This document shows positions 7,204 to 36,730 of a stretch of DNA of 36,730 bases, piece by piece; the first letter of the stretch is position 1; every line of letters starts with the position of its first letter. Position numbers and translations under genes: made by a program. The notes beneath the pieces are model-generated. The model saw only the letters and a list, made by a program, of their open reading frames with translations, was not told where the DNA came from and ran no database searches. Location of the stretch: assembly GCA_964364105.1 (NCBI GenBank), contig CAYILI010000003.1, positions 1 through 36,730 of the forward strand. Direction: 5' to 3'. The stretch is from an uncultured Gammaproteobacteria bacterium. Lineage in GTDB: Bacteria; Patescibacteriota; Microgenomatia; Levybacterales; UBA12049.

Positions 7204-7234
7204 TAGCCACACAAGGTCGGACCTTGCGTGGCTA
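7204..7234. repeat. REP-like palindrome copy 2
   Basis: Identical to 6214-6244, same orientation, 990 bp apart. Confidence 0.9.
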
Positions 7235-7274
7235 GAGCCTTAAATTTCCACGTAAACAAACTTTGCCGGTGGAC

Positions 7275-7303
7275 TGGACAAAATAGCCTCTAAATTATAT
7301 AAT
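7275..7303 (+). promoter_or_regulatory. Sigma70-type promoter
   Basis: TGGACA-17-TATAAT, with ATG 7 nt downstream. Confidence 0.55.
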
Positions 7304-7310
7304 CGCGTGA

Positions 7311-17730: not shown

Positions 17731-18672
17731 TTAGAAATTGTTTTCTGAAATTATTTTAAGTAGATTTGGAACTCCGGGATCTCCTGGCATGTACCATTCG
17801 CTTCCTTTTGCTCCATATTTAAAATATGCAATACCTGAAAGACTATTATCCCTCATGACTTGGTCTATGTCATTTAAAAGCTGACTTTCTGATGGCTTCA
17901 CCCAAAGAGGCTGTTCTTCCCAAGCACCAAGCGCAATGATAATTTTAGTATCTGGGTCAATTTTTCTGATCGAACTTTTAGCTCTTTCTGTTACTACGCT
18001 TACAAAATCATCATAATAGTCGTCAACATTACTATACGCATTAACCATAACTATATCTGCCGTATTCTTATCAAAGGGATTTCCGCCTCTAAAAAAATTA
18101 TTGTCATTATCATAAAAAAACCATCCGTTCATACGTACGAGAATTGGGTGAACTGGATCAGCTTGCTTTACATCTTTATAAGATTGCTTAAGTTGAAATT
18201 GAGTCAGCATAAACCTTGAAGGGTTAGGAAAAACAGATCCTGCCTCATTGGATATGTCCCAAGCGTATACAGCAGGGTGGTCTTTCCACCTCTTAATCCA
18301 ATCCACCACATCTTTTTTATTCCAGGTAGGCTTTTGGTCATCCGGATATCTTTCCTGATCGCACTTATAACCCCACTCAGCTTCTCCCGAACCTGCAGGC
18401 ATTATAACTTTAATGTGATATTTTTGACTTTGATCCAGGAAATATTTAATATTCTCATCACTTGCGCAAATATCAAAATTTCCCTCTATAACATCTACTT
18501 TTGCATCTTCTAAGATTTTAAAATCCGCTTCTGCTAGACCAAAATGATCCATATAAGCTTCTCCAACATCCTTCATGATTTTCAGATGGGGAACATTTGA
18601 AGCTTTATAATTCGTAATAACAATTAAAAATGCTATTAAAAAAAGTGTAATTAATAAATATAAGTATTTCAT
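17731..18672 (-). CDS. Membrane-anchored clan GH-A glycoside hydrolase (GH5/GH2-like)
   Basis: KDHPAVYAWDISNEAG acid/base motif and K..DP.HPI; N-terminal TM. Confidence 0.75.
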   Translation of the reverse strand: MKYLYLLITLFLIAFLIVITNYKASNVPHLKIMKDVGEAYMDHFGLAEADFKILEDAKVDVIEGNFDICASDENIKYFLDQSQKYHIKVIMPAGSGEAEWGYKCDQERYPDDQKPTWNKKDVVDWIKRWKDHPAVYAWDISNEAGSVFPNPSRFMLTQFQLKQSYKDVKQADPVHPILVRMNGWFFYDNDNNFFRGGNPFDKNTADIVMVNAYSNVDDYYDDFVSVVTERAKSSIRKIDPDTKIIIALGAWEEQPLWVKPSESQLLNDIDQVMRDNSLSGIAYFKYGAKGSEWYMPGDPGVPNLLKIISENNF

Positions 18673-20513: not shown

Positions 20514-21085
20514 ATTTCTTCTATGTTAATAAGCCTTGCTCTGACCCTATATCTATTTTGATCAAAAACCCCATCGCAAGTAATTAATGTTAAAATTGGA
20601 TTTTCCTCCGGGTAAAATGCTTCAACTGATGAAGGTAAAACCTTATCGCTTGCCTCAACTACGTAAAATGCTTTATAGTTTTGACCATAAACAATTACGC
20701 TGTCTCCAACCGAGAGCCTCTTAATATTTAAAAAAACATCAGGAAGGGCATGACCAAATATTCCTACATTTCCTGTCTTTTCATTAATAAGACTCGTACC
20801 TTCTGCGAAATTTGCAACACCCGGATGAACTTCCCATGTACCATTTTCCATAGGAACCGAAACAACAGGAAGATCAATACCCGCTTTCTCCATTACCACC
20901 CTTTCTGGAGTAAAAGATATTACGTTTTCTTGTTCCACGTCAACCGACACATAACAATTAGCACACTCCCCGTCACCAGCATCTACTACCTGCGCAAACT
21001 TTTGGTCCAGTGTGACAAAACTTAATATTGCAGTAGTTAATAAGAAAACTGCAAATATGTTAACCCTATTTAATAAAAACTTCAT
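20510..21085 (-). CDS. Sortase
   Basis: N-terminal TM and the catalytic triad GNVGIFGH, LTLITC and R (NRYRVRA). Confidence 0.9.
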   Translation of the reverse strand: MKFLLNRVNIFAVFLLTTAILSFVTLDQKFAQVVDAGDGECANCYVSVDVEQENVISFTPERVVMEKAGIDLPVVSVPMENGTWEVHPGVANFAEGTSLINEKTGNVGIFGHALPDVFLNIKRLSVGDSVIVYGQNYKAFYVVEASDKVLPSSVEAFYPEENPILTLITCDGVFDQNRYRVRARLINIEEI

Positions 21086-21270
21086 ACACTCCTATTTTTT
21101 AAATATCGGCTGATATGTCCCAATAACATTAAGAATAATATTGCGTTAATAACTACAAAACTTGCTGCTATTACAGGGTGAACTTTATCTGCTAGGATAA
21201 ATCCTGCAGCTGAAGTCGCTGGCAATGCAGTTGCTAAACCCAATACTCCTCCTTTTCCATATTCTGTCAT
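21082..21270 (-). CDS. Minimal sortase-substrate-like peptide (LPATS + TM + basic tail)
   Basis: RBS AGGAGGTG 9 nt before ATG 21270; sequence GGVLG...LPATS, a hydrophobic helix, then RYLKNR. Confidence 0.7.
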   Translation of the reverse strand: MTEYGKGGVLGLATALPATSAAGFILADKVHPVIAASFVVINAILFLMLLGHISRYLKNRSV

Positions 21271-21290
21271 ACTATAAAACACCTCCTTTC

Positions 21291-22718
21291 TTACCTGGTT
21301 CCCCAGGCAGCTCCATAACCAATTCTGGAAAATCCAGATTGGCTTAGCTTATATAAATTGTTAATTCCAGTTACAAACTTAGAAGCGGCAAAACTATAAA
21401 ATAAAAACAAATATGAACCTAAAAGAATAAGACTTAATAAATTCGAATAAATGAATTCCGGGAAGAAAGTAAATTTAAGAATAGAATCTTTGAAATCCCG
21501 ATCAGGATAGGAGAGATGTGTGAAAACCGTATAAACTATAATTACTGCAAAATTTATTGAAGAAATTGCAAATAAAACAGGCGTAAATGCTGACTCCTTA
21601 TAAGTTCCTGCATAAATAAAGGATAGTGTAATCAAGATCAACAAAACTATAAAAGTGAAATGTCCAACCAGGTCTTGGTAAATTGCAATAAACCAATTCC
21701 AGTTCTGAATTATTACTCTTAAGCCTCCACTTGTCCATCTTGCCCGTTGTTTCCAAAGACTACTAAATGTTTCCGGAACTTTTGTCCATGCCACAGCAGT
21801 CTGAGAAATTCTAACTTCCCATCCTTTTATTTTTGATCTAACAGTAAAATCATAGTCTTCGATCAGATGCCCCTTTGAAAAACCGTTTAGATCTTCTAGA
21901 ACAGTCATTCTAATTGCTGCTAACATCCCCTGCATTACGAGAGGACCCCGGAAAAAACCATTATCAGCAATTTTCGTAATATTAAAACTGTGATACTCCA
22001 TCGCTTGCATGCGAGTTAGCAAATTTTTATTTTTGTTTATCACTCTAACTTGAGAGCAAACAATTCCAATTTTTGAATGTTTATAAAGTTCATTTATCAT
22101 CTCGGGAATTGTACTTTGGATAATTTTTACGTCATCATCAAATGTGAAGACTACATCTGGTCTTTGATAAACCAATGATCTTAAATAATTCACTCCATAA
22201 TTTAGGGCTCCAGCTTTCATTTGATTTTCAGCCGTTCTTAGAATAATAATCTTGTAATTAAATCTTGCTAATTCAGAAATCATAGAAAAAATATTTTGAG
22301 TTTCGGAATCATTTGGAGAAGAATCATCAACTACCACAATTGATACCTTTGGAAACCAATCAGAAATGGATTTTATTAAATTATATGTTTCAATTGATGG
22401 CTTATAAGTGGGAATTACTACTGAAACACTTTTACCATAAAAGGTGGCTTCAAAGCTTTTTTTAGCAGGAGTTTTTGGAATAAAAAAACTAGAAAAATTC
22501 TCTAAAGTTTTTTTAGAGATGTTACGTAAGATAAATTTTCGAGCGTTATAAAGTATAAAAAATATTTTTATAAAGCCTGAAACTAATAGATATAGCTTGA
22601 AGCTTGGGGACGATAAAACTTGTTTTGCGATTAAAATATCGCCTGTTAAAAATAGCAAAATAAATAAGCTATCTAGAAAAAACCTCAATTGCCCCGAAAT
22701 ATTTGTGTTCTTATACAT
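21291..22718 (-). CDS. Processive GT2 glycosyltransferase (IcaA/PgaC/cellulose-synthase-like)
   Basis: Motifs VSVVIPTY, VVDDSS, KAGALN, FDDD, IEDYD and QRARW; flanking TMs. Confidence 0.9.
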   Translation of the reverse strand: MYKNTNISGQLRFFLDSLFILLFLTGDILIAKQVLSSPSFKLYLLVSGFIKIFFILYNARKFILRNISKKTLENFSSFFIPKTPAKKSFEATFYGKSVSVVIPTYKPSIETYNLIKSISDWFPKVSIVVVDDSSPNDSETQNIFSMISELARFNYKIIILRTAENQMKAGALNYGVNYLRSLVYQRPDVVFTFDDDVKIIQSTIPEMINELYKHSKIGIVCSQVRVINKNKNLLTRMQAMEYHSFNITKIADNGFFRGPLVMQGMLAAIRMTVLEDLNGFSKGHLIEDYDFTVRSKIKGWEVRISQTAVAWTKVPETFSSLWKQRARWTSGGLRVIIQNWNWFIAIYQDLVGHFTFIVLLILITLSFIYAGTYKESAFTPVLFAISSINFAVIIVYTVFTHLSYPDRDFKDSILKFTFFPEFIYSNLLSLILLGSYLFLFYSFAASKFVTGINNLYKLSQSGFSRIGYGAAWGTR

Positions 22719-22929
22719 AAAACAGGGCAAGGACAGAGATTATATTGTACATTATAGGTTGTGTCAACAAGAAATCTTAAATTCTAAGAATTACAGTTAA
22801 ATCAAGAACTTACAAATGATAGGGGACTAGATGCTTATAGGATAATTTTTCCGCAAATTCTATAATTTTCTTAACCCAAATCTTCAAATACTAATACTAT
22901 AGTTTGATTTAAGAATAAAAAGATTAAGA

Positions 22930-23721
22930 CTAACTTTCTAAATACAAATTAAGGAGTTCTTGGTGGATTTCTTTATTTTTTCCTGCTATAGCTCCTACTG
23001 ATTTAACCGTCCATTCGTTTCCGGAAAGATCAGTTATTACACCACCTGATTGCTGAATTAAAAAACTGGCAGCACTGATATCCCATGGGTGATTATATGA
23101 ATTTAAAAAACCATCTACTTTACCTACTGCTGTATAGGTAAAACTAAGAGAAGAATTAAGAGAAATAATATTAAAATTATTATCCAAAACTAACTTTTTC
23201 AAAAAATTATTGTGTTTTTTCTTTTGTTCTTTTTTTAGAGAAGCAATAGAACCAAAATCCACTTCTAAAGTTGTGTCAAATCTTTTTTCATTCGGCTGAA
23301 ATACTTTTTCATTTACGTAAATTCTATTCCCGCCAACTGACCAAAAATAATCTTTCTGACTGTGATCAATAACACATGAAGCAATAATCTTACCTTTTTC
23401 TGTAAGGACTATATTTGTACAATAATTATTTATCCCCCTGGCGAGATTACTAGTTCCGCAAATAGGATCAATAATCCATATCCGACCTTCTGGAATTGCA
23501 GTATTTGTATTGTTTTCTTCCGCAAGTATTTGATCTTTGGGAAATCTTTTTTTAATTTCCTCAACGATGAGGTTCTCAACATCAATATCAACCTGTGTAG
23601 AAAAATCACCCTCTCGCTTATGCTGAGCGATTGCCATGCTTTTATCAGGATTTGAGACCAAATCACGAACGACATCAGCAATATAATGAAAAAGGTCCTT
23701 TTCCTGTTGGAGCTTATTCAT
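22930..23721 (-). CDS. Inositol monophosphatase family protein
   Basis: Motifs T.VD, ILAEE, WIIDPICGT.N and PWDISAA...QSGG.ITD. Confidence 0.88.
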   Translation of the reverse strand: MNKLQQEKDLFHYIADVVRDLVSNPDKSMAIAQHKREGDFSTQVDIDVENLIVEEIKKRFPKDQILAEENNTNTAIPEGRIWIIDPICGTSNLARGINNYCTNIVLTEKGKIIASCVIDHSQKDYFWSVGGNRIYVNEKVFQPNEKRFDTTLEVDFGSIASLKKEQKKKHNNFLKKLVLDNNFNIISLNSSLSFTYTAVGKVDGFLNSYNHPWDISAASFLIQQSGGVITDLSGNEWTVKSVGAIAGKNKEIHQELLNLYLES

Positions 23722-23813
23722 GTGGAATAATTATATCATGACAGAAGGTCAAAATTTACAGAGTTGCAAACGCGGTCTGTAGAATATTAGTTCTTGTGCT
23801 TGGAAGGTGCTAT

Positions 23814-23847
23814 AATAAGTCCGAACATCGTTCGGTAGGCTACCCCA
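23814..23847 (+). repeat. att-like junction, family C (distal copy)
   Basis: AATAAGTCCGAACATCGTTCGGTAGGCTACCCCA, homologous to 15346-15379. Confidence 0.65.
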
Positions 23848-23898
23848 AAAAACCTACTGTTTTATTCAATAGCTACAAATTTGATATAATCCCTTCCT

Positions 23899-24609
23899 AT
23901 GTCTGTTGAGAGTCAATATTTCCCGGATGTTAATTTTAGAGAATTAACTGAAGTTTTACCTGAAAGAAGTAGACTAGAACGGTTAATACCCGGATTTTTA
24001 CGAAGAGAACCGCGCGTTTATTACGATGAACACGTAGCTCTTGATCAACTATTAGACGATTTTAGTGAAACATTAGGTATGGTCTCGGCTTCTACAGGAA
24101 CAAGGCTTACCATGGATGGCGTTCATGTCCAGCTGATAACAAGAAAACAGTTAATCAATTCATTAAACAATCCTTCTAAACTAGAAGAGGTGCATGGAGA
24201 TGGAGTTTTGCAAATGATAGACGGAAATTGTACGAAAAACCCAGACGGAACATGGTTAATAAACATAGTCCAAAATAGAACAGATCATGTAGTTCAAGTA
24301 TCGCGGTCTATGGAAATCTTAGCCCATGAGTACGGACATACTCTTGGAAATGAATTTAACGCACATCCGATGCTGGAAGAAGTAAAAGCATATGCTTTTC
24401 AAGCTATGGCAATGGCAGCAAATTGGAAAATTCCAGAAAGCTATTACAAACTAAGCGGCACGTATGTAAATTACACGCATGACGTTGCAAGAGATCGGCT
24501 TATGCAGCTTAGAGATAGAGGTTTTCCTACAGGAATAATAATCGCTACTTTAACCGACAAACCTTTCGGAAATTTCAGAGTCAATAGCAATATGCATCCT
24601 GATCTTTAA
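23899..24609 (+). CDS. Hypothetical protein with HExxH zinc-metallopeptidase-like motif
   Basis: ILAHEYGHTLG followed by EEVKAYAF (possible third Glu ligand). Confidence 0.6.
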   Translation: MSVESQYFPDVNFRELTEVLPERSRLERLIPGFLRREPRVYYDEHVALDQLLDDFSETLGMVSASTGTRLTMDGVHVQLITRKQLINSLNNPSKLEEVHGDGVLQMIDGNCTKNPDGTWLINIVQNRTDHVVQVSRSMEILAHEYGHTLGNEFNAHPMLEEVKAYAFQAMAMAANWKIPESYYKLSGTYVNYTHDVARDRLMQLRDRGFPTGIIIATLTDKPFGNFRVNSNMHPDL

Positions 24610-25991: not shown

Positions 25992-26771
25992 ATGAAAGCT
26001 TGGTTATTTGACGTAGATGGAGTTATTACAAATCCAGAGCTTAAAAAGGCAAATCCCCAAATTATTAAAAAACTTTCCGAAATCCTAGAAAGAGGAGAAA
26101 TCCTGGGTTTTAATACAGGCAGAGCACTTGAGTTCGTAATCGAGGATGTTTTAAAACCACTGAACGTGGCACTCACAAACAAAGAGCTTTTATATAATGT
26201 TTTCTTCGTTGGGGAAATGGGTGGAACATGGGGAGATTATAAAAATGGAAAAATCGAAGATACAATTGACCCTCAAATCACAATTCCTGATGAATTAATC
26301 CAGAAAATTAGAGATCTAATTTCTTTTAAATATTCTGACACTATGTTTTTTGATGAAACCAAAAAAACTATGATTTCTGTCGAACTTATAAAAGGAAAAG
26401 ATTTGGCTCGGTTTCACGAAGAACAAAAAAAACTTATAGAAGATATGAGGAAGATCCTTGAGCATTTAGGTGACGCTAATTTAGTAATTGATCCAAACAT
26501 TATTTCGACAAATATCATAAACTCTCATGTGGGGAAAGACCTAGGAGTCAAAAGATTTCTCATGCTTATTAAAGACCGACCCGAACCTGAAGAATTTGAG
26601 ACATTTGGTGATAACCAAAGCGACTTAGAGATGCATAAATATCTTATTAAAAACGGCCACAAATCGAGATTTATATATGTAGGAGCTAAAGAAATCGAAG
26701 AAGGGAAAAATATAATTAAAACAAAAGCCAAATTCGACAAAGGAACTATAGAATATTTATCAGTAAACTAA
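25992..26771 (+). CDS. HAD-superfamily hydrolase (Cof/IIB-like)
   Basis: Motifs LFDVDGVIT, NTGR, K (GKDLG) and FGDNQSD. Confidence 0.85.
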   Translation: MKAWLFDVDGVITNPELKKANPQIIKKLSEILERGEILGFNTGRALEFVIEDVLKPLNVALTNKELLYNVFFVGEMGGTWGDYKNGKIEDTIDPQITIPDELIQKIRDLISFKYSDTMFFDETKKTMISVELIKGKDLARFHEEQKKLIEDMRKILEHLGDANLVIDPNIISTNIINSHVGKDLGVKRFLMLIKDRPEPEEFETFGDNQSDLEMHKYLIKNGHKSRFIYVGAKEIEEGKNIIKTKAKFDKGTIEYLSVN

Positions 26772-26780
26772 TACTAAATA

Positions 26781-28172
26781 TTATATTTCTGGAAATATAA
26801 TTGTGTCTTTGATATTCTGTCTATCACCCAAAACCATTAACAATCGGTTTATTCCTATTCCAACTCCTGCTGTTGGGGGAACCCCATATCTTAATGCTTT
26901 TACCAAAGGATTGTTTGCATGATTCTGGCCACCTATACCTAATTTATTCTCTAGATCTTGAAGCTCAAGTCTTTGCTGTAGTTCGTCAGGATCTGTTAAA
27001 TTGCTTGAAATGTCAGCAAAACCCATACCAGCAATACACGCCCAGGCTCTCTCAACAATTTTTGGATCATAAGATTTTGCTTTCCCAAGCGGAGCTACTG
27101 ATACAGGAAACTCTTTTAAGAATGTCGGCTGAATCAATCTAGGAACGACTAATCTCTCTATTAACTTACTTATTCCCTGGCTATATGTTAAATTTTCTAT
27201 ATCTATTCCTAATTGCATTGCCCTATCTCTAAGCTGACCTTCAGTCTCTACATCGGTTAAGGAAAAACCACCGTATGTTCTTAGGGCATCATTTACCGTT
27301 ACTTGATCCCAGATTCCAGACAAATCCACAGCATTCCCATCAACGAAAAATTCCATTTTTCCAAATGCCTTAAATGCTGCATTTTTTACCAATACCTCAG
27401 TTAGCAACATCATGTCATCATAATCTGTGTAAGCAGCATATGCTTCAAGAGTTGTGTACTCAGGACTATGCATCCTGTCCATTCCTTCATTGCGAAACGA
27501 CTTTCCAAGCTCATAAACTCTTTCAAATCCACCTGCTATTAATTGGACAAGCTCAACTTCACTAGTGGGACGCATGTACACATCTGAGTCTAAGGAGTTA
27601 TGATGGGCTATAAAAGGACGGGCCTGACCAGATTGAAATCTTCTTCTCAGTACCGGAGTCTCAAATTCTTGAAACCCTAACGAATTTAAATTATCTCTAA
27701 ATGCTCTTACTAGAGTTGAGGCCTGGCTAAAAAATTCCAAAGAATCACCATCAGAAATTAACTGTAATGGAAAATTGTCTCTTCTTTTTCCAACATCTCT
27801 TACCCCATGAAACTTATCAGGATATCTATCTAGAAACTTAGCAACTACATCATGCTCTGATACTAAAATACTCGGCTGCTGGCTTTTTGGTAAAAAAGGG
27901 ACTCCATTTACTCGTAAAATATCTCCAAGCGAGACGCCACTAAGCACTCCTGAAGTAGACTCTTCATCAGCGGGAAATACAGCTTGAACTGTTCCAGTCA
28001 TATCTTTTAAGTCAGCAAATCCAATCGTCTTCATCCTTCGTATACCGGCAACTCTTCCTCTCAACTGGACAGGGCTGGGATTCTGCAGCGAATCTGCGAA
28101 CGCTGCGTTAAAATCTCTCATACTTTGATAAGACTCTTGTTGATCTTGACTCCTTCGACCTAACTCAGGCAT
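26781..28172 (-). CDS. Divergent class II lysyl-tRNA synthetase paralog
   Basis: OB-fold (GRVAGIRR...FADLKD.TG.VQ), motif 1 GFQEFETPVL, motif 2 FRNEG..HSPEY and motif 3 YGVPPTAGVGIGINRL, with an altered ERAW/GMGFADISSNL segment. Start ATG 28172 overlaps the upstream stop (alternative TTG 28193). Confidence 0.85.
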   Translation of the reverse strand: MPELGRRSQDQQESYQSMRDFNAAFADSLQNPSPVQLRGRVAGIRRMKTIGFADLKDMTGTVQAVFPADEESTSGVLSGVSLGDILRVNGVPFLPKSQQPSILVSEHDVVAKFLDRYPDKFHGVRDVGKRRDNFPLQLISDGDSLEFFSQASTLVRAFRDNLNSLGFQEFETPVLRRRFQSGQARPFIAHHNSLDSDVYMRPTSEVELVQLIAGGFERVYELGKSFRNEGMDRMHSPEYTTLEAYAAYTDYDDMMLLTEVLVKNAAFKAFGKMEFFVDGNAVDLSGIWDQVTVNDALRTYGGFSLTDVETEGQLRDRAMQLGIDIENLTYSQGISKLIERLVVPRLIQPTFLKEFPVSVAPLGKAKSYDPKIVERAWACIAGMGFADISSNLTDPDELQQRLELQDLENKLGIGGQNHANNPLVKALRYGVPPTAGVGIGINRLLMVLGDRQNIKDTIIFPEI

Positions 28173-29160
28173 GACTAGACCCGTCCTCTCCAAATAAATA
28201 TCTCATTGGGTTAACATATGACATCGATCTTCTAATTTGATCAGGTAACCTATTGAGTAGAGCCACTTCATCTTCATAGGTAACTTTTACGAGAATTTTT
28301 TTATTTGCATCGTCGGTAACCGTAGTCCACGGTTCATCTGTTCCCCAAAGAACTCTGTCGGGTATTAAATCATAAACTTGAGCTAATACCTCAAGTGGAT
28401 CTTCGTATGCGAGATCTAAAACTTCTCCATCAGTTCTTTGTTGTGCAAAGTGACAGTTAGTAATATGGGGTGCTACATCTACAAAAAGATTTTCTGATCT
28501 TCCCGCTCTTAACCGATTAAAAAAAGTTGCTTCGAAATCACCTGCATGAGCTATGCAAATCCTAAGATCGGGTAATTCTTCAGCAACATCTAGGGCTTGC
28601 TCTGGTCTTGAATATTCATCAGGTCCCGAATGAAACATTACCGGAAGGGAATGATCCTGGGCAAATCTTGCAAAAAGTGATTCAACGAAAGAAGACAGTG
28701 GTGTGTGTGTCGCTAATGAGTGGAACTTGAGGCCAAATAATTGATCCGTTGAGGTAAATTCTCTAAGCAAGTCAATCTGCTCTTCTTCTTTTACTCCAGG
28801 TAAAACATTCGCGAAGGGCATAATTCTATCCCTGCCAAACAATTCTACTTCAGAAAAATGAGCTCTATTTGCGTGTTCATATGGAAACCTTTCCGCAGGC
28901 TCCCGTGAAGGCTCCCAGTTCGCATCAAATGCAACTCCTCTTGCATCAAACCAAAATAGATCACTTGGAGCAGGAAATACCGCTGCATGACTTACACCAT
29001 TTGCATCCATTTTCCTTACCATATCTAAAATTCCTTGAGCTATTGGATACCTTCTTCTTACGATATTTGTGGCATCAAAACCAGCATGAGAATGCGAATC
29101 AATAATTGAAGCATCCGGAGTATTTAATAAAACGCTATAGGCTTTGGCTCTTTCTGTCAT
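28165..29160 (-). CDS. Amidohydrolase-superfamily (Amidohydro_2-like) metal-dependent hydrolase
   Basis: Motifs IIDSHSH, GLKFH, PVMFHSG, IAHAG and VLWGTDEP; likely start MTERAK at 29160. Confidence 0.85.
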   Translation of the reverse strand: MTERAKAYSVLLNTPDASIIDSHSHAGFDATNIVRRRYPIAQGILDMVRKMDANGVSHAAVFPAPSDLFWFDARGVAFDANWEPSREPAERFPYEHANRAHFSEVELFGRDRIMPFANVLPGVKEEEQIDLLREFTSTDQLFGLKFHSLATHTPLSSFVESLFARFAQDHSLPVMFHSGPDEYSRPEQALDVAEELPDLRICIAHAGDFEATFFNRLRAGRSENLFVDVAPHITNCHFAQQRTDGEVLDLAYEDPLEVLAQVYDLIPDRVLWGTDEPWTTVTDDANKKILVKVTYEDEVALLNRLPDQIRRSMSYVNPMRYLFGEDGSSHA

Positions 29161-29163
29161 ACT

Positions 29164-29213
29164 ACTTGTAAAACAAGTTTGGCTAGTATACAATACAGTA
29201 TTAATAAAAACAA
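29164..29213. promoter_or_regulatory. Overlapping divergent promoters with a palindromic operator
   Basis: Plus strand TTGTAA-17-TACAAT (29166-29194); minus strand TTGTTT-17-TATACT; ACTTGT-AAA-ACAAGT at 29164-29178. Confidence 0.55.
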
Positions 29214-29217
29214 TCCT

Positions 29218-30228
29218 ATGAGATATAAACTTTTACTAATCTTATTCGGAATAATTTTAATTGCTGGATTTACAGCGATATATACCAGAAATACTGAAAC
29301 TGAAAAAACCAATAATATAAATATGAAGATTGGGTGGCAAACACCTTGGGCAGTACAAGGTCAATTGACTCAAATACTAAAACACACAGATATTCTTGGC
29401 AACGAAAACATATCCGCAGAATTTAAAGGCTTTACTTTCGGCGCACCCCTAAACGAAGCAGCACTTTCAGGCCATGTTGACGTAATTTTTACCGCAGACC
29501 AGCCAGCAGCAACTCTCCTAAGCAAAAGTTCGGACTGGGAAATTATTGGAAGACTTATGTACAATAGAGTCTCCGTTTACGTCCCCCCGCAATCTCCAAT
29601 AAAAACAGCAGCAGACCTAAGGGGTATGACTGTAGCAATGCCTTTTGGCGCAGCTGCACAAAGATATGCATATAAAATTCAACAAGATTCTGGCTTAAAT
29701 CCTGCGACTGATGTTAATAACATTAACCTGGATATCCTAGAACAAGCATCTCTCGTAAATGATAAAAACGCAGTAAAGTGGGGGAATATCGATGCATTAG
29801 CAGGTTTTGATCCCACACCGGCAATATTTGAAGAAAAAGGATTAAGCAGAAATATAGGCGTAGGACATGTAGTTTCGGTTATTTTAATGTCAAAATCATA
29901 TATAGCAAGCAATCCAGATGCTCCTGAGAAATTTCTAAAAGCTTTTGAAAGCTCTTATGCTTACTATAAAAATAACCAAGCTCAAGCAGATGACTGGTTT
30001 ATTAAAGAATCTAAGCTACAATTGTCACCCAAGGCATTGCAACTATCAGCAAGTCTTGAACCGAATTTAAAAAAGGATAATGAAATAAGAATTTCCTTTA
30101 ATGATAGCGACTATAAAATCATGCAAGAAGCTGCTAATTTCTTGTATTCTCAAAAATTAATAAATAAGCAGGTTAACATGAAAGAACATGTGAATTTAAA
30201 TTATTTAAATAAAATCAAAGGTGAATAA
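29218..30228 (+). CDS. ABC transporter substrate-binding protein (SsuA/TauA/NMT1 family)
   Basis: N-terminal TM, F..GAPLNEA..SGHVD, SPIKT.ADLRG.TVA.P.G and Y...NPD...KFLKA. Confidence 0.88.
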   Translation: MRYKLLLILFGIILIAGFTAIYTRNTETEKTNNINMKIGWQTPWAVQGQLTQILKHTDILGNENISAEFKGFTFGAPLNEAALSGHVDVIFTADQPAATLLSKSSDWEIIGRLMYNRVSVYVPPQSPIKTAADLRGMTVAMPFGAAAQRYAYKIQQDSGLNPATDVNNINLDILEQASLVNDKNAVKWGNIDALAGFDPTPAIFEEKGLSRNIGVGHVVSVILMSKSYIASNPDAPEKFLKAFESSYAYYKNNQAQADDWFIKESKLQLSPKALQLSASLEPNLKKDNEIRISFNDSDYKIMQEAANFLYSQKLINKQVNMKEHVNLNYLNKIKGE

Positions 30229-31349
30229 TGCAAAATTTACTTCTTATTTCACTTGATACAGTAAGAGCCGACGTAGCGTACAGCAAGAAATTTCCAACAA
30301 TAAATAAACTAAGATCGGAAGGGGTTACATTTTTAAACACAGTCTCCTCGTCTCCTCTTACACCTTGTAGCCACACAACAGTTTTTACTGGTCTCCAGCC
30401 TTATAACCATGGAGTGAGGCACTTATTTAGAGAAAGGTTACCAAAAAACATTCCTACATTTACTCAAGCGCTCAAACAAAAAGGCTACAAAACAAAAGCG
30501 ATTGTTTCCTGTCCGGGAATGAATAAATGGTATGGATTCAGCAAGGGATTCAACAGCTATGATGATGAAATCCCAAGATTAGCGGACGGCTCCGATCCAT
30601 TAAAAACAGTGGATGTTAAAAAAAGAGGAACTGCTTTAAAAAGAGCAAAGCTTGTAAGCGAAAAAGCGATTGAGTGGCTAGAGAATAATAAAAAAGAGAA
30701 TTTTTTTCTGTTTATCCATTTTTTTGATGCACACTGGCCCTATGAAGCACCTGAAAAAATTATGGGAGACAATCCCTACGAAGAAGAGGTAGGATATATG
30801 GACCATTACCTGGGAAAAGTTATTGAATATCTTAAGAAGAATAATCTTTTTGATAACACTACTATTATTGCCTTTTCTGATCACGGTGAAGATTTAGACG
30901 GATGGTATCCAAATGACAAGGGAGGATCTAGATTAGGCCATCCAGAGGAGATGGGACACGGATGCCTATTATATCAGCAGACACAAAAAGTTTTATTAAT
31001 TATAAAAGATAAAAACTTACCGTCAAATAAAAACATTAAAAACCAGGTAAGACTTGTCGATGTAAACCCAACAATTCACGATCTAATGAGTCTTAAGCAA
31101 AAACAGAAAAAACTTGACGGCGTTAGTATTCTACCAATCATAAAGGGCTCAAGCTTAAATCTTATCGGATATTCTGAAACCCTATATCCTGAGGAGCTTG
31201 CTAAAAATGACCCAAAATTCAAAAAAATAAAAACAAAAAAATCCATTATCTACAATCAAACTAAGCTCATCTCTGATATATCAGGAAACAATACAGAGGT
31301 GTATGATTTAAATAAAGATCCAAACGAAACGAATAACCTTTTTAAATAA
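30228..31349 (+). CDS. Sulfatase-like alkaline-phosphatase-superfamily hydrolase/transferase (Thr nucleophile)
   Basis: Motifs ISLDTVRAD, SPLTPCSH..FTG, HFFDAHWPY, FSDHGE, GHG and YDL.KDPNE; no CxPxR. Confidence 0.85.
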   Translation: MQNLLLISLDTVRADVAYSKKFPTINKLRSEGVTFLNTVSSSPLTPCSHTTVFTGLQPYNHGVRHLFRERLPKNIPTFTQALKQKGYKTKAIVSCPGMNKWYGFSKGFNSYDDEIPRLADGSDPLKTVDVKKRGTALKRAKLVSEKAIEWLENNKKENFFLFIHFFDAHWPYEAPEKIMGDNPYEEEVGYMDHYLGKVIEYLKKNNLFDNTTIIAFSDHGEDLDGWYPNDKGGSRLGHPEEMGHGCLLYQQTQKVLLIIKDKNLPSNKNIKNQVRLVDVNPTIHDLMSLKQKQKKLDGVSILPIIKGSSLNLIGYSETLYPEELAKNDPKFKKIKTKKSIIYNQTKLISDISGNNTEVYDLNKDPNETNNLFK

Positions 31350-32227
31350 TGGACTTAAATAAAGTAGTTAAATTTCTTGACGGCTTCTTTAACACCAAAC
31401 AATCTGGTCCGGATCTTCCTTTCTCTAGACTTATTCCTAATATATATAATAGTGGTGGAATTAGACTTTCAAATTTCGTATACCCTGATTTTACGAAAAA
31501 TTTTAATGGGCTAATGTTCAAAAACGCCGACCAGGTCGATGATTTTTTTTCCACAGTTTTCCTGTCTCAAGATGCAATTGACCGCATTGCTAACAATGAC
31601 AGTAGGAAACTATTAATTACGCATCACCCCATGGATGATAATACAAGCGAAAAAGGTTTTCTTCCATTAACAGAAGCGTATCTGGATAAAATAATAAAAT
31701 ATAAAATATCAATTTACTCACTACACAATCCTCTTGACCAAAATAAGAATATTTCTTCTTCTAAATCAATCGCAAATGCTCTTTCATTAAATAATTTAGA
31801 ATACTTTATGGATAACGAGGGGGTAGTTGGAGAACTACCAGAATGGTTATCTACAGAAGAACTATTAATAAAAGCTAAAAGTATTTTTGGAATATCTGAC
31901 ATTAAGTCAGTTGAAAAATCAAAAAAGAATAAAAGAATTGCAGTAGTTGCTGGGGGCGGTTCCGAGCCAAGCACCTTAGAAATTATAAGGAACCTAAAAC
32001 CTGACGCATATATAACTGGCGAATATATTAGTAGAATAAAAAATAATTTTGCCGAGAAGGAAAGAGGTAAATTCAATGAACTTTTACCAAGCTTAGACTT
32101 TAGCCTAATAGGCGCTTCTCACTATGCGACAGAAAGCTTAGTGCTTAAGAATGAACTCAAAAAATTACTAGACGATGAGCTTGGGATAAACCTCAAATTT
32201 TTAGATCAGGAGGATTCCTGGTATTAA
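31349..32227 (+). CDS. Nif3/YbgI-like dinuclear metal protein (annotated family 'GTP cyclohydrolase I type 2')
   Basis: Motifs NGL, ITHHP, IYSLHNPLD, IAVVAGGG, YITGE and SHYATE. Confidence 0.85.
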   Translation: MDLNKVVKFLDGFFNTKQSGPDLPFSRLIPNIYNSGGIRLSNFVYPDFTKNFNGLMFKNADQVDDFFSTVFLSQDAIDRIANNDSRKLLITHHPMDDNTSEKGFLPLTEAYLDKIIKYKISIYSLHNPLDQNKNISSSKSIANALSLNNLEYFMDNEGVVGELPEWLSTEELLIKAKSIFGISDIKSVEKSKKNKRIAVVAGGGSEPSTLEIIRNLKPDAYITGEYISRIKNNFAEKERGKFNELLPSLDFSLIGASHYATESLVLKNELKKLLDDELGINLKFLDQEDSWY

Positions 32228-33633
32228 TGAAGAGTAAACCCTATGAAAAAATTATACTCATCTCTCTTGATACACTTAGAGCAGACTGTATTCCGTCTAA
32301 TCCTAATAAACTTTATAAAAATAAATATCAATTAGATATAGAAATCGAAGACTCTATTTTAAATCAAATATCCAAGAGTGGATTTTTCTTTAACAATGCC
32401 GTTTCCGTTGCGCCTTACACTTCAGCATCTCATGCTGCCTACTTTACGGGTAAATGGCCAAAAAATAATGGCTTATATGACCAGTTCAATAGTAAACTAC
32501 GAAACGATGTCAAAACAATTTTTAAGCTTCTTAATGAAAATGGGTATGAAACTATTTTTAAAACAGATTTTCCCTTCATTCTTGGAAAGTATCTAAATTT
32601 AATAAAAGGGGTGGATAAATATTTCATCGAAGATGACAACGCTGCATTATCAAGCATAAAGAAGAATAAAAAACAGCTTGTTTTTTTTCATTTTGGACAA
32701 ATACATTACCCCTATGGTTTCCACAACTTAAAGTATGGAGGAGAAGACTACGTTAAAAAACTAAATCAACTTGAAAAAAAATACAAAATAAAAACAAATG
32801 AAATCAGCTTAGAAGACATGGCAATCGAATCCTTTAGATCTGATAAAGATATAGAAATGCTTTTTCGATATAAAAAAATAATTTCACATTTGTATAAAAA
32901 TAGGCGAGATAGCGAACTCTTCAATCTGTACATTGAGGGAATTAATTATTTTAATAAAAAGAAGCTGAACGGTTTTCTATCAAAGCTTATTGATTTGTTG
33001 AATAAAGAAAATTATCTGATAGTGATCTTTGCTGATCACGGAGAAGCCTGGAACGATAGCGCCTATGGTCATCATAACTCATTAGATGAAGATGTTTTAA
33101 GAGTCCCAATAATTTTCTACTCAAAAGATATAAAACCAAAAACCTACGGAAACAGAATTCGGACAATTGATCTAGCGCCTACAATCGCGGACATTCTTGG
33201 AATAAAAGCTGATTACGATGGGAAAAGCTTGAAAGATATAATTTACAGCGATATTGTTGAAGAGGATAGAGAGGCATTCTCTGCAATTTGGGTAAATGAA
33301 TCCAATGCTGTAATAAAACAGATTAAAAGTTTATTAAAGAAAGATAAAATAAGCTTCAATAAGTCTAAGTCTATTAAATATGGCGCTAGTGTATACAAAA
33401 ATAATTTTAGATACGTTGAGTACTATAAGAAATTTGCAAATAGAAGTGAGGAGCTTATCAACCACAACAGTGAAGCATTGTACAAAAATGGAGAACTAGT
33501 TAGAAAAAAAGACTCAAAGGTTCTAAAAGGACTTAAGGCTAGGATTTCAACTCTAAACAATATTAACACTCAAAGCAATATTTCACCTGAAGAAATAAAA
33601 AGCTATTTAAGATTACAAGGATATAAAGTCTGA
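32227..33633 (+). CDS. Second sulfatase-like alkaline-phosphatase-superfamily protein
   Basis: Motifs ISLDTLRAD, APYTSASH..FTG, IHYPY, FADHGE, GHHNSL, VPIIF and IDLAPTI; C-terminal LRLQGY. Confidence 0.85.
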   Translation: MKSKPYEKIILISLDTLRADCIPSNPNKLYKNKYQLDIEIEDSILNQISKSGFFFNNAVSVAPYTSASHAAYFTGKWPKNNGLYDQFNSKLRNDVKTIFKLLNENGYETIFKTDFPFILGKYLNLIKGVDKYFIEDDNAALSSIKKNKKQLVFFHFGQIHYPYGFHNLKYGGEDYVKKLNQLEKKYKIKTNEISLEDMAIESFRSDKDIEMLFRYKKIISHLYKNRRDSELFNLYIEGINYFNKKKLNGFLSKLIDLLNKENYLIVIFADHGEAWNDSAYGHHNSLDEDVLRVPIIFYSKDIKPKTYGNRIRTIDLAPTIADILGIKADYDGKSLKDIIYSDIVEEDREAFSAIWVNESNAVIKQIKSLLKKDKISFNKSKSIKYGASVYKNNFRYVEYYKKFANRSEELINHNSEALYKNGELVRKKDSKVLKGLKARISTLNNINTQSNISPEEIKSYLRLQGYKV

Positions 33634-33634
33634 T

Positions 33635-34213
33635 ATGTCAATCGTAAGTACAACAAAACTGCAACTAAAATATGGGGAATTTAACGTAAGCTACCATTCA
33701 TCTAAAAAGGGTGAATGCGTTTCATTCTGGCTCGGAGATTTATCAAAAAAAAATCCTGTTATAAGAATCCATTCTGCCTGTCTTTTCGGTGAGGCCTTCT
33801 CCTCCCTTCACTGCGACTGCAATGATCAACTCAATGAGACTCTCAAAGAGATTAAAAGTAATGGAGCCGGGGCAATAATTTATTCGTATTCTGAGGGCAG
33901 AGGAATAGGACTAAGAAAAAAAATTGAAGCAATGGAGATCCAGAGAACGAAAAAGCTAGATACTGTACAAGCTTTTGCCAAACTAGGACTTAAGCCAGAT
34001 CTCAGAGGCTATAATTGTGAAATTAATGCACTAAATGAATTAAGAACTAATAAGTCTATTAAATTAATATCTAATAATCCTAATAAAATAAATTCCTTAG
34101 AAAAAGCAGGTTATAAAATTACTGAAAATATAAAAATAAAAATTAATCTAAATAAATATAACCGGCAAGAGTTATTAATAAAAAAAACAAAAATGGGCTA
34201 CTACATTGACTAA
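33635..34213 (+). CDS. ribA: GTP cyclohydrolase II family protein, Tyr-to-Met variant
   Basis: Motifs RIHSACLFGE.F.S.HCDC..QL, EGRGIGL..KI.AM..Q, D.R.Y and LISNNP.K. Confidence 0.9.
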   Translation: MSIVSTTKLQLKYGEFNVSYHSSKKGECVSFWLGDLSKKNPVIRIHSACLFGEAFSSLHCDCNDQLNETLKEIKSNGAGAIIYSYSEGRGIGLRKKIEAMEIQRTKKLDTVQAFAKLGLKPDLRGYNCEINALNELRTNKSIKLISNNPNKINSLEKAGYKITENIKIKINLNKYNRQELLIKKTKMGYYID

Positions 34214-34218
34214 CAAAG

Positions 34219-34947
34219 ATGAGAAAAAATATATTAATTTTCATCTGTCTATTAATTGTCTGGCAATTATTAATAACCTACATTGTTACTGATAAAAATT
34301 TGCCTACATCACTATCTCTAACTCAGGAATTTATAAAAAGCATGAAAGAAGGGCAGATCATAAATGACATGTTCTACAGCGTTAAAAGAGTTTTTGTTGG
34401 ATATTTGATGGCATGTTTTTTTGGGATTTTTTTGGGACTCGTTGCTGCATATTTTCAAAGAATTGGCTCAACATTAAAACCAATCGTTGAGCTATTAAGA
34501 CCAATTCCCCCAATTGCCTGGATACCACTTTCTATCATTTTTTTTGGATTAGGAGACAATGCGTCTTATTTTATTGTTTTTTTAAGCTCATTTTTCCCAA
34601 TCTTTACTAACACTTATTTTGGTGCTTCGAGCCTTCCTCAGATTTATATAAATATAGCAAGGACCTATGAGGTTAATTTTCAGGATTATTTCTTTAAAAT
34701 ATTATTGAAATATTCTCTTCCTAATATTTTTACAGGATTAAAAATTGGTGTTGGAATGGCTTGGATGAGCGTAATTGCATCTGAATTAGTTAGTGCGCAA
34801 TCTGGCCTTGGATACTATATACAGATAAACCGACTTCTTCTTAATATGGATAGGATAATAATAGGAATGTTTCTTATCGGAATTATAGGGCTAATATTCA
34901 ATAAATTAATATCAATTGGTGAAAAGAGGATAATTTCATGGAAATGA
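34219..34947 (+). CDS. ABC transporter permease (SsuC/TauC family)
   Basis: Motifs S.KRV..GY, LRPIPPIAWIP and LPNIFTGLKIG...AW..VIASE....SGLG. Confidence 0.92.
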   Translation: MRKNILIFICLLIVWQLLITYIVTDKNLPTSLSLTQEFIKSMKEGQIINDMFYSVKRVFVGYLMACFFGIFLGLVAAYFQRIGSTLKPIVELLRPIPPIAWIPLSIIFFGLGDNASYFIVFLSSFFPIFTNTYFGASSLPQIYINIARTYEVNFQDYFFKILLKYSLPNIFTGLKIGVGMAWMSVIASELVSAQSGLGYYIQINRLLLNMDRIIIGMFLIGIIGLIFNKLISIGEKRIISWK

Positions 34948-35645
34948 ATGATACATTGATTTTAAAAAAAATTACTCATGTTTATTATACAAAAAGAGGG
35001 GACAGGAGAAGTATTTTTAATAATGTTAATCTAAGCATCAAAAAAGGAGAAACAGTAACAATTTTGGGGAAATCAGGATATGGCAAAACTACATTAGCAA
35101 ATATCATTTGCGGCTATCTGGAACCCACGAATGGCAATGTTTTTGTAAATGGACTAAATACAAATTCTCCTTCTAAAGAGAGGGTCATGGTAAATCAAAG
35201 TGATGACCTGTTTGACTGGATGTCGATTGAGGAAAACATGAAAATTGCTACTAAAGATGTGGCAAAAATTAATAGATATCTCATTGCCGTAAATTTAATT
35301 AATTTAAAAAATGAATATCCCCATAAACTGTCTGGTGGCATGAGAAAAAAGCTATCTCTTGCTAGAGCATTAGCAGCCAATCCAAGTATACTCGTACTGG
35401 ATGAGCCCTTCTCTTATCTAGATCATTCAACCAAAAGTGAGTTATTTTTATTCCTAAGTAAGAATCTTAAAAAAGCCAAAACAACAACTATTTTAATTAC
35501 GCATGATATTGACGAAGCCATTTATTTGTCAGATAGAATTTTCGTTTTATCAAACACTGGTGGTGGTACTCTTAAAGAATTCTTATTTAAAAAAAATAGA
35601 CTCAAATCAAAAACTTTAGTCGAGGAAATTAAAAGTCTATACTAA
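34938..35645 (+). CDS. ABC transporter ATP-binding protein (SsuB/TauB family)
   Basis: Walker A GKSGYGKTT, LSGGM, LVLDEPFSYLD and ITHDIDEA. Confidence 0.93.
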   Translation: MEMNDTLILKKITHVYYTKRGDRRSIFNNVNLSIKKGETVTILGKSGYGKTTLANIICGYLEPTNGNVFVNGLNTNSPSKERVMVNQSDDLFDWMSIEENMKIATKDVAKINRYLIAVNLINLKNEYPHKLSGGMRKKLSLARALAANPSILVLDEPFSYLDHSTKSELFLFLSKNLKKAKTTTILITHDIDEAIYLSDRIFVLSNTGGGTLKEFLFKKNRLKSKTLVEEIKSLY

Positions 35646-35701
35646 AAGCCTATAATATACTTCCTTTAAATATTTTGGTATAATGCGTTCCACTATTAAT
35701 T

Positions 35702-36730
35702 ATGGCTAATGAAAGCAGTCAACCAAGAGGCATAGGCCACCCACCAGTCGAATCTGAAGCAGGCAGGACAACATCTTCAGAATTCAACGAACAAACAAGA
35801 GTGAGGCTCGAAAAACTTAGGGCACTAAGGTCAATGGGAATAAATCCCTACCCGGATCATTTTGAAAGATCTCACCAGCCTCTAGATATCAGAACTAATG
35901 CAGATTTACTTGGAGAGACAGTTACAACTGCAGGAAGGCTAGTTGGAATTCGCAGAATGGGAAGAACCAACTTTGCTCATATTCAAGATAGTTCTGGACG
36001 AATTCAAATACACATGAATCCTGAAGGAGTAGGGGAAGACGGATTAGGATTCTTCAATGATTATTTTGATTTAGGAGATATTATTGGAGTAAGAGGAAAA
36101 CCATTCGTAACAAGGACGGGGGAAACAACAATCGGAACTGAATCTTTTCAGATGCTTGCAAAAGCTCTCAGGCCTTTACCTGATAAACATCACGGCTTAA
36201 CTAACGACGAGCTAAGATACAGAAGAAGATACTTGGAGCTAATTGCAAATCCCGATACCAGAGACAGATTTGTTACAAGAACAAAAATAGTGAAAGGTGT
36301 TAGGAATTTTCTTGATGCGCATGACTTTATGGAAGTCGACACTCCAGTTCTACAACCAGATCCATCCGGAGCTACTGCTAAGCCTTTTGTAACACATCAT
36401 AATGCTTTGGACCAAGATTTATTTTTAAGAATAGCGCCTGAAACATACCTTAAAAGATTAATCATAGGTGGATTTGACAGAGTATATGAAATGGGGAGAA
36501 TTTTTAGGAACGAAAATATTGACCCTTCTCATCTTCAAGATTTTACAATGCTTGAGTTTTATGCTTCATACTGGAATGCAGACAGAAGTCTTAAGTTTAC
36601 TGAAGCACTCTTGAGGAGCACTGCACAAGCTGCTTTAGGCGAAAATCAGGTTATTCAAATTGGAGAAAATACAATTGACTTCTCAGCACCTTGGCCAATA
36701 GCACAATATAGAGACCTTGTTTTAGCTCAT
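35702..36730 (+). CDS. lysS: Lysine--tRNA ligase (class II), 3' truncated by the window edge; absent from the ORF track
   Basis: My translation from ATG 35702 gives RLEKLRALRSMGINPYP, AGRLVGIRRMG..NFAHIQDSSGRIQ, TRTGETT, RYRRRYLELIAN, SGATAKPFVTHHNAL, LRIAPETYLKRLIIGG and FRNENIDPSHLQDFTMLEFY. Confidence 0.93.
   Translation, partial: MANESSQPRGIGHPPVESEAGRTTSSEFNEQTRVRLEKLRALRSMGINPYPDHFERSHQPLDIRTNADLLGETVTTAGRLVGIRRMGRTNFAHIQDSSGRIQIHMNPEGVGEDGLGFFNDYFDLGDIIGVRGKPFVTRTGETTIGTESFQMLAKALRPLPDKHHGLTNDELRYRRRYLELIANPDTRDRFVTRTKIVKGVRNFLDAHDFMEVDTPVLQPDPSGATAKPFVTHHNALDQDLFLRIAPETYLKRLIIGGFDRVYEMGRIFRNENIDPSHLQDFTMLEFYASYWNADRSLKFTEALLRSTAQAALGENQVIQIGENTIDFSAPWPIAQYRDLVLAH

Follow-up and report, generated by a model that had tools for sequence, protein, structure and literature searches.

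What can a lysyl-tRNA synthetase (LysRS) become when the side of its active site that serves lysine and metal has changed? The question is raised by a gene at 26781–28172, on the minus strand, of a 36,730-nucleotide stretch of DNA (contig CAYILI010000003.1, positions 1–36,730, assembly GCA_964364105.1), which was analysed as a whole and is called the window below. A sequence-only reading had described the product as a class II LysRS (LysRS-II) paralog with a rewired active site and a retained anticodon-binding fold, which would bind ATP and possibly tRNA and would be unlikely to charge lysine. By its sequence, the paralog belongs to a small family that descends from class II LysRS and is monophyletic. 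We named this family 'RAW', after the R-A-W that replaces R-F-E; its other traits are D-I-x-[ST]-[DN] and R-x-T-x-E, where the canonical enzyme has N-A-F-S-E and R-I-A-x-E, respectively.

Gene and domain structure of the paralog

The paralog and the parts of it considered here are the following:

26781..28172, minus strand: LysRS-II-derived paralog ('RAW' family), 463 aa counted from an ATG, with PF01336 and PF00152
27855..28070, minus strand: oligonucleotide-binding (OB) fold of the anticodon-binding type, residues 35–106 (PF01336, 42.4 bits, E 6.9e-11)
27540..27572, minus strand: RPTSEVELVQL, residues 201–211, the counterpart of RIAxELYLKRL, with the E240 equivalent kept
27483..27497, minus strand: motif 2 FRNEG, residues 226–230, with R227 and E229 unchanged throughout the family and ordinary LysRS
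26997..27053, minus strand: ERAWACIAGMGFADISSNL, residues 374–392, the rebuilt metal/lysine strand with W377, G384, D387, I388, S389 and N391
26844..26855, minus strand: motif 3 GINR, residues 440–443, with R443 invariant and Asp changed to Asn

The mechanically called open reading frame (ORF) is longer and reaches a TTG at 28193; the ATG start was used for the 463-aa protein. This ATG overlaps the stop codon of an Amidohydro_2 hydrolase gene by 8 nt (ATGCCTGA) and has a GGAGAGG box upstream. The arrangement, including the 8-nt overlap, is conserved in both carrier genomes, i.e., the window's own genome (G000) and that of a congener with an orthologous gene (G007).

Besides the OB fold, Pfam matched the class II core PF00152 over residues 142–462 with 178.9 bits. 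In a PDB sequence search, the best solved relatives were bacterial LysRS (9jkl, E 1.4e-86; 3a74, E 1.1e-84), and the matches from E. coli were LysS (1bbu, E 1.8e-72) and LysU (1e1o/9kwd, E 9.1e-72). The LysRS alignments span residues ≈32–462 of the paralog, with 36–40% identity over the full length. Class II motifs 1, 2 and 3 are all present, with P173, F226-R227-N228-E229 and R443 invariant in the family.

The NCBIfam models for LysRS ranked first and gave scores below their cut-offs: 387.8 versus 468 for NF001756 and 338.8 versus 427.6 for TIGR00499. The LysX model NF002821 matched residues 27–461, corresponding to its LysRS part only, with 315.7 bits (cut-off 742), and the EpmA model TIGR00462 gave 138.6 bits (cut-off 286.9). 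All scores being below cut-off, no curated NCBIfam model claims the paralog. The EpmA score, together with the presence of the OB fold, agrees with the earlier statement that the protein is not EpmA. The AlphaFold2 (AF2) model of the paralog was of moderate quality, with a predicted local distance difference test score (pLDDT) of 72.7, falling to 46–65 over residues ≈170–250 (around motif 2) and to 54–57 over ≈410–440; a model this modest allows no choice between a ligase and a non-catalytic protein.

A rebuilt lysine and metal side next to a conserved ATP side

The paralog was aligned residue by residue to E. coli LysU (9kwd_A, in which the numbering is that of 1e1o plus one). All the substitutions quoted in the sequence-only reading were present, with ERAW at residues 374–377, GMGFADISSNL at 382–392 and SQQ at 97–99, and the active-site changes fall on E414 (W377), E421 (G384), N424 (D387), F426 (S389) and E428 (N391) of LysU. 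The alignment likewise bore out that motif 2 FRNE, the E.Y pair and the motif 3 Arg are intact: the kept residues are E205 (LysU E240), R227 (R262), E229 (E264), H235 (H270), Y239 (F274), E243 (E278), Y245 (Y280) and R443 (R480). We take R262, E264, H270 and F274 to be the residues with which LysU holds ATP, E240 to be the anchor of the alpha-amino group, and E278 and Y280 to be two of the three contacts to the epsilon-amine. The LysU structure papers of Onesti (in 1995) and Desogus (in 2000) are said to describe E414 and E421 as Mg ligands and to assign roles to other residues. Glu428 contacts lysine directly and Arg480 touches the gamma-phosphate of ATP (PMC8251883).

The 11 members of the 'RAW' family were compared column by column with 58 ordinary LysRS, 45 of them drawn at random from the fetched matches and 13 taken from genomes of relatives. 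The number after each letter is the count of proteins:

LysU 414: family W11; ordinary LysRS E45 Q12 M1
LysU 421: family F3 G3 D2 A2 I1; ordinary LysRS E58
LysU 424: family D11; ordinary LysRS N50 D5 K2 E1
LysU 425: family I10 F1; ordinary LysRS A38 G11 S4 N3
LysU 428: family D6 N5; ordinary LysRS E58
Paralog residue 203: family T11; ordinary LysRS A43 S15
Paralog residue 210: family Q8 E2 M1; ordinary LysRS R58
Motif 3 Asp (paralog residue 442): family N6 S3 D2; ordinary LysRS D56 E2

In addition, the F426 position reads Ser or Tyr in the family, the DEDF motif is altered, and the GGA loop, with G53, G58 and A54 in ordinary LysRS, is mixed (A6 S3 G2 and G11). Val at position 170 in motif 1, found in 57/58 ordinary LysRS, is Phe in 11/11 members. 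Altogether, 30 alignment columns that are conserved in ordinary LysRS are lost in the family. These columns show that the lysine and metal side has been rewired, as had been proposed. Since E414 is replaced by Gln in 12 of the ordinary enzymes as well, the weight of the argument rests on E421 and E428, which are Glu in all 58.

Could the paralog still be a working LysRS, for example a backup or an inhibitor-resistant copy? It aligns with LysRS over its full length and has all three motifs, and mobile elements and biosynthetic clusters often bring resistant synthetase copies. We regard this as quite improbable, considering that the two positions that are always Glu in ordinary LysRS are Gly and Asn in the paralog, that its scores stay below the LysRS cut-offs, and that the host has a class I LysRS and the surrounding mobile island a second class II enzyme (LysRS2) that passes the same models.

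The kept ATP-side residues would also suit a synthase of diadenosine or dinucleoside tetraphosphates (Ap4A/Ap4N) or a sensor of alarmones or nucleotides, and an Ap4N-type enzyme was among the earlier suggestions. LysU is the classical Ap4A synthase, and Ap4A is made from the enzyme-bound lysyl-adenylate. Because this route goes via lysyl-adenylate, for which the lysine and Mg residues lost here are needed, and because the island neighbourhood shows no sign of nucleotide signalling, this function is very unlikely.

The 'RAW' family is small, monophyletic and under purifying selection

A search of 5.8 billion clusters returned one protein with 74% identity to the paralog (P0001) and three with 53–55% (P0002–P0004), followed by ordinary LysRS at ≤40%. 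In a filter-free search of 1.84 billion representatives, P0001 (792 bits), P0121 (378 bits) and P0122 (a 361-aa fragment, 318 bits) scored above the ordinary LysRS, which started at ≤289 bits. The pattern R-A-W...D-I-x-[ST]-[DNE] was matched by 9 of the 269 proteins fetched; these, the paralog itself and P0128, an N-S-W variant picked by eye, make up the 11 members. The 11 proteins are 32–75% identical, and all have W377, D387 and T203, while I388 is present in 10.

A maximum-likelihood tree was calculated from 71 rows, comprising the 11 members, 45 ordinary LysRS, 13 proteins from relatives, LysRS2 and one Asx-type outgroup. All the members fell on one side of a branch that had a Shimodaira–Hasegawa-like approximate likelihood ratio test (SH-aLRT) support of 100 and formed a stem with a length of 0.67 changes per column. 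When the 63 trait columns were removed, because the family rows had been chosen by motif, the clade retained a support of 99; both trees were quick searches without bootstrap. Alignment and phylogeny thus agree that the substitutions define a clade.

The paralog and its G007 ortholog share 75% amino acid identity, with dN (nonsynonymous changes per site) of 0.16 and dS (synonymous changes per site) of 1.9, which is saturated, giving a dN/dS of ≈0.08. This value lies within the range of the neighbouring genes (0.03–0.15). A decaying, functionless relic of a duplicated lysS might have lost the 30 conserved columns in this way. Such a relic is hardly credible here, however, with the frame intact in all members, the low dN/dS, the translational coupling conserved and the changed residues invariant across 11 proteins at 32–75% identity. 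The changes are thus shared within one clade and are not the random decay of a single gene, the outcome that the sequence-only reading had named as speaking against it. As far as sequences tell, the recurrence of the same changes in all 11 members exceeds chance, and the conservation of the rebuilt positions themselves argues for a new, selected pocket and not for drift.

The family is very rare, with only these 11 proteins among the matches of the two billion-scale library searches. Within the order, 2/245 genomes carry it (family profile, E ≤ 1e-105), and in samples of 401 genomes each from the class and the phylum, the window's own genome is the sole carrier; the class sample takes in one genome not yet published (G128), which enters the count of non-carriers only. 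A collection scan with a 5-member alignment, relying on generic LysRS patterns, kept 80 loci, all of which were ordinary LysRS with 33–39% identity. There were no matches to a back-translated MRPTSExELVQL pattern in a metagenome scan, and a search with an 11-member profile yielded no further members among the matches listed, most of which were ordinary LysRS. Two LysRS-like genes on viral contigs (≈30% identity) both fall outside the family. No description of such a paralog came up in a term search of AARS Online and of the literature outside subscription; the passages returned by AARS Online hold one single LysRS-II family.

The tRNA-binding side

The paralog had been said to retain the anticodon-binding fold and to lack the N-terminal helix, and each statement held in part. 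The OB core residues G39, R40, R45, F52, D57 and Q63 are kept in 8/8 family members that have the domain. What has changed is the loop that connects strands 4 and 5 (T-x-x-G-E), which in class IIb enzymes recognises the third base of the anticodon; in the paralog, its sequence is P-K-S-Q-Q. At T95, G98 and E99 of this loop, the family has P5 T2 S1, Q3 N3 G1 R1 and E4 Q2 T1 H1, respectively, compared to T78, G77 and E78 in 81 ordinary LysRS. The N-terminus is shortened and not absent: 38–51 residues precede the 'GR' motif of the OB fold in the family, against 29–97, mostly 49–71, in the same 81 enzymes. From these residues, it is plausible that the paralog could bind some U35-type anticodon loop, with specificity for tRNA-Lys not assured.

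Possible functions: a re-specified ligase or a non-catalytic subunit

Our tentative preference is that the paralog is an ATP-binding ligase that has been re-specified away from lysine and whose substrate is probably cationic and amino-acid-like. This function is a prediction from the observed family, conservation, gain and loss of residues, gene coupling and island context. The protein would still bind ATP and would have abandoned the canonical Lys-tRNA(Lys) route, with Asp387 as a candidate replacement metal ligand. It might work with the coupled Amidohydro_2 hydrolase as mobile-island cargo, possibly on a nucleic-acid acceptor. The invariance of the ATP-side and motif residues at 32–75% identity supports a ligase that has retained ATP binding, and the Asp found at the E421 position in the basal members P0165 and P0237 fits a catalytic ancestor. 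Given this Asp and the invariant Asp387, it is not established that the family cannot carry out adenylation.

Several observations weigh against a ligase. There is no acidic residue at the E421 position in 9/11 members, among them the paralog itself with Gly; as this position is Glu in every ordinary LysRS compared, the protein may be catalytically dead. No class II synthetase is known to us to be active when this Glu is missing. The takeover of the metal role by Asp387 is a conjecture with no reliable model behind it, and there is no substrate that we can name. No tRNA gene was found inside the island, and ARAGORN detected no tRNA-Lys among the 29 tRNAs of the 92%-complete assembly, which is too incomplete to judge. 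Finally, at 45 metagenome loci with homologs of the hydrolase (29–53% identity), the neighbouring genes included neither a LysRS-like one nor another member of the block (0/45), showing that the pairing of hydrolase and paralog is not obligate and is specific to this island type.

The lost residues would also suit a non-catalytic pseudo-synthetase, i.e., a tRNA- or nucleotide-binding subunit that acts as a heterodimer partner of LysRS2 or as a targeting or regulatory subunit of the hydrolase. Such a protein would have kept the fold, the dimer interface, the nucleotide pocket and the OB core and would be unable to adenylate. We consider this a serious, if somewhat doubtful, alternative. It accounts for the loss of the E421-equivalent metal ligand, the E428 lysine contact, the GGA loop and R210, as well as for the kept OB core; the invariant V170F, at the class II dimer interface, could re-tune the choice of partner, and the paralog and LysRS2 are inherited together on the same block in G000 and G007. 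It sits less well with the strict conservation of all ATP-contacting residues across deep divergence, with the new invariant Asp that adjoins the lost Glu, and with the Asp at the E421 position in the basal members. Pseudo-synthetases such as HisZ and the accessory subunit of polymerase gamma show no such conservation. SLIMP, HisZ, GCN2 and DALRD3 have lost their ATP-site motifs, whereas the 'RAW' family keeps all of them.

The coupled Amidohydro_2 hydrolase

The gene with which the paralog overlaps is:

28165..29160, minus strand: Amidohydro_2 TIM-barrel metal hydrolase, 331 aa (PF04909), its stop overlapping the ATG of the paralog

The residues HxH, H, H and D are invariant in 18 aligned homologs, and the AF2 model of the hydrolase is confident (pLDDT 92.1). 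The nearest folds were LigI-type lactonases, COG3618 hydrolases and decarboxylases of the ACMSD/IDCase type, a likeness at the fold level only (12–18% identity, template modelling score ≈0.5–0.6); a PDB sequence search with the hydrolase gave no match. The cluster library contains 24 proteins of the hydrolase family. One of these, P0337 (60% identity), and the paralog P0004 are each listed on a 9586-bp contig, which fits a single contig and does not prove it.

Recurrent neighbours at the metagenome loci (L106–L150) included a pyridoxal phosphate (PLP) decarboxylase, a class I/II aminotransferase, an alkaline-phosphatase-fold phosphodiesterase, a histidine phosphatase, a methyltransferase, a radical SAM-GNAT protein and an AdoMet synthase. 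In 6 of the 18 loci examined, genes for synthetases (MetRS in three cases, HisRS in two, SerRS and TyrRS) lay ≤4 kb from the hydrolase homolog. The idea that the hydrolase family marks synthetase paralogs was weakened by the finding that each of the full-length neighbours scanned clears one or more of the ordinary equivalog cut-offs. The HisRS at L115, truncated by the contig end, scores below its cut-off. At L111 (828–3164, minus strand), a 779-aa MetRS with an N-terminal nucleotidyltransferase domain (PF01909) adjoins the PLP decarboxylase and the amidohydrolase homolog.

The paralog is the outermost cargo of a putative mobile island

The paralog lies at one end of an island of ≈15.5 kb between a HAD gene and tRNA-Arg(TCT), made up of 26772–36730 of the window and 2013–7610 of locus L020, on contig C55 of G000. 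Its other parts within the window, apart from the hydrolase gene and LysRS2, are:

26772..26780, no strand: left island edge, 9 bp between the stop codons of the HAD gene and the paralog, defined by comparison with G008
29179..30228, plus strand: SsuA/NMT1-type binding protein of an ABC importer, divergent (PF09084; TIGR01728, 102 bits, below cut-off; PDB 2x26 SsuA, E 7e-6)
30228..31349, plus strand: alkaline-phosphatase-superfamily ('sulfatase' fold) enzyme 1 (PF00884, PF01663; T-P-C-S-H)
31349..32227, plus strand: NIF3/DUF34 protein (PF01784; TIGR00486, 85 bits, below cut-off)
32227..33633, plus strand: alkaline-phosphatase-superfamily enzyme 2 (PF00884, PF01676; T-S-A-S-H)
33635..34213, plus strand: GTP cyclohydrolase II, RibA-like (PF00925; NF001591, 164.8 bits, above the cut-off of 148)
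34219..35645, plus strand: ABC permease (34219–34947) and ATPase (34938–35645) of the Ssu/Nrt/Tau type (PF00528, PF00005)

The congener G008 has an empty site, in which the HAD gene is followed by ≈480 bp, tRNA-Arg and an AI-2E transporter, with no island; homology between G008 and G000 restarts exactly at the tRNA end on C55. The ≈480-bp stretch (L151, G008:C1) has a small ORF and is missing from the same place in G000. Past LysRS2, C55 encodes a DNA-binding protein (phrog_1305), a TerS-like protein (PF03592; phrog_51), two unassigned ORFs and a 508-aa large serine recombinase (PF00239 + PF07508; phrog_95, 227 bits), followed by tRNA-Arg(TCT) and the AI-2E transporter. With the empty site in G008 and homology resuming at the tRNA end, the paralog can be placed at the outer end of the cargo of an integrative element, whose mobility is predicted from its sequence; in size and layout, with the recombinase, the TerS-like gene and the DNA-binding protein of phage type near its tRNA end, the element resembles a phage satellite.

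In G007, contig C11 (11,243 bp) is collinear with 25992–36730 of the window. The order of the block is HAD, paralog, Amidohydro_2, SsuA-type binding protein, alkaline-phosphatase-fold enzyme, NIF3, alkaline-phosphatase-fold enzyme, GTP cyclohydrolase II, permease, ATPase and LysRS2. The best NCBIfam models for the permease and ATPase were SaoP/SaoA and NtrB, all below cut-off. Both alkaline-phosphatase-fold enzymes have Thr at the nucleophile position and are without the C/S-x-P-x-R formylglycine motif and a signal peptide; the pair resembles the phosphodiesterase and phosphotransferase members of that superfamily. PADLOC matched 0/13 island proteins.

The GC content at third codon positions (GC3) is uniform over the block (0.26–0.31), so the island is not a compositionally fresh arrival. 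A recent transfer, considered on account of a GC bump at 27–29 kb, was rejected: GC3 is even there, and the bump reflects amino acid composition. DNA near-identical to 26781–29160 is found in groundwater metagenomes, with three runs from two studies each containing half or more of the sampled words; the source sample may be among these runs. A second strain-variable segment lies at 17731–24609, where six genes are absent in G008 between the homologs of nadE and of 16976–17728. They include genes for a polysaccharide deacetylase, a sortase, a family 2 glycosyltransferase and an inositol monophosphatase.

A more speculative thought, which we hold to be improbable, is that the island forms a mobile 'second lysine channel'. 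Here, LysRS2 would charge a tRNA, or the paralog itself would activate a non-standard lysine-like amino acid imported and processed by the island, after which the aminoacyl-tRNA or a nucleic-acid acceptor would be the target of the paralog and the hydrolase. If true, ultra-small groundwater bacteria would be exchanging, by way of an element like a phage satellite, a synthetase of a new kind derived from LysRS or a new tRNA-dependent system of modification.

The host and its other lysyl-tRNA synthetases

The sequence-only reading had used the lysS at 35702 as its reference. This gene, our LysRS2, turned out not to be a housekeeping lysS; the genus has a class I LysRS, and LysRS2 is island cargo:

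35702..36730, plus strand: second class II LysRS ('LysRS2'), N-terminal 343 aa, running off the window

The rest of LysRS2 is on C55 (L020 7609–7091, minus strand), the two pieces overlapping by three codons. The full-length LysRS2 of G007 (517 aa) passes the LysRS models, with 586.9 versus 468 and 519 versus 427.6. In the tree, LysRS2 sits on a long branch, apart from both the LysRS of relatives and the 'RAW' family. Its residues at the E414 and N424 positions are Gln and Lys, respectively.

The G000 genome, from a small groundwater bacterium, amounts to 1.2 Mb in 116 contigs and is 92% complete. Class I LysRS (PF01921) was matched in 16/16 genomes of the genus, 15 of them above the Pfam cut-off, and in G000 it is an intact 507-aa frame on C7 (G000:C7:18071–19144). 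With the paralog as query against 61 relatives, strong matches of the class II LysRS type within the genus were found only in G000 and G007; other congeners gave weak matches only, at the level of Asp/Asn-RS. G000 and G007 each hold three LysRS-type genes. One of the 29 tRNA genes in G000 is a tRNA-Ile with anticodon TAT. With a class I LysRS in the host and an island LysRS2 that passes the models, the paralog is free of housekeeping duty.

Comparison with known systems

Class II LysRS proper (LysS/LysU; TIGR00499, NF001756; 1e1o, 3a74, 9jkl) shares with the paralog the OB fold and catalytic core, motifs 1–3, the ATP side and E240, E278 and Y280. The paralog differs in E414W, E421G, N424D, F426S and E428N, in the changed GGA loop, R210 and DEDF, and in forming a separate clade. 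LysX, a fusion of MprF and LysRS, contains a LysRS-II module that is like the paralog in matching NF002821; the paralog, however, is a stand-alone protein of 463 aa without MprF or a membrane domain. The coexistence of class I and class II LysRS in G000, on C7 and in the island, respectively, resembles the situation in Bacillus cereus. Unlike in B. cereus, the class II gene lies on a mobile element together with a third, rebuilt paralog, and no tRNA-Other-like gene was found in the tRNA scans of the island and the assembly.

EpmA (PoxA/GenX), the (R)-beta-lysine ligase for elongation factor P (EF-P), keeps the acidic metal ligands. Its Ala298 presumably corresponds to the middle Gly of G-x-G-x-G, and this residue is Gly in the paralog. 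Like the paralog, EpmA is derived from LysRS-II and taken off tRNA charging; it keeps adenylation and is described as a catalytic core without an anticodon-binding domain (bioRxiv 10.64898/2026.07.07.736966), whereas the paralog has its OB fold.

Pseudo-synthetase subunits (SLIMP, HisZ, GCN2, DALRD3) resemble what the non-catalytic alternative would make of the paralog, in that they are kept for binding of tRNA, ligand or partner and not for aminoacylation. SLIMP pairs with mitochondrial SerRS2 and HisZ with HisG, and GCN2 has a HisRS-like domain. DALRD3 is reported to work with METTL2 and offers a precedent for a pseudo-synthetase subunit. The paralog is inherited together with a synthetase of the cognate type (LysRS2) and with the gene for a putative partner enzyme.

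Few synthetase paralogs are understood (EpmA, HisZ, AsnA, the amino acid:carrier-protein ligases and SLIMP), and each gave new biology. If the paralog is active, as we tentatively prefer, it would be a natural case of re-specification of the LysRS pocket, of interest for genetic-code engineering; if inactive, it would parallel, in a bacterium, the pseudo-synthetase subunits of eukaryotes. In both cases, it bears on the cargo of mobile elements in genome-reduced, auxotrophic bacteria. The lineage that it has entered uses a class I LysRS, and the phage-like island that carries it also brings a bona fide class II LysRS. What sets the 'RAW' family apart is that the anticodon-type OB fold and a complete ATP site are kept while the amino-acid and metal side has been rebuilt.

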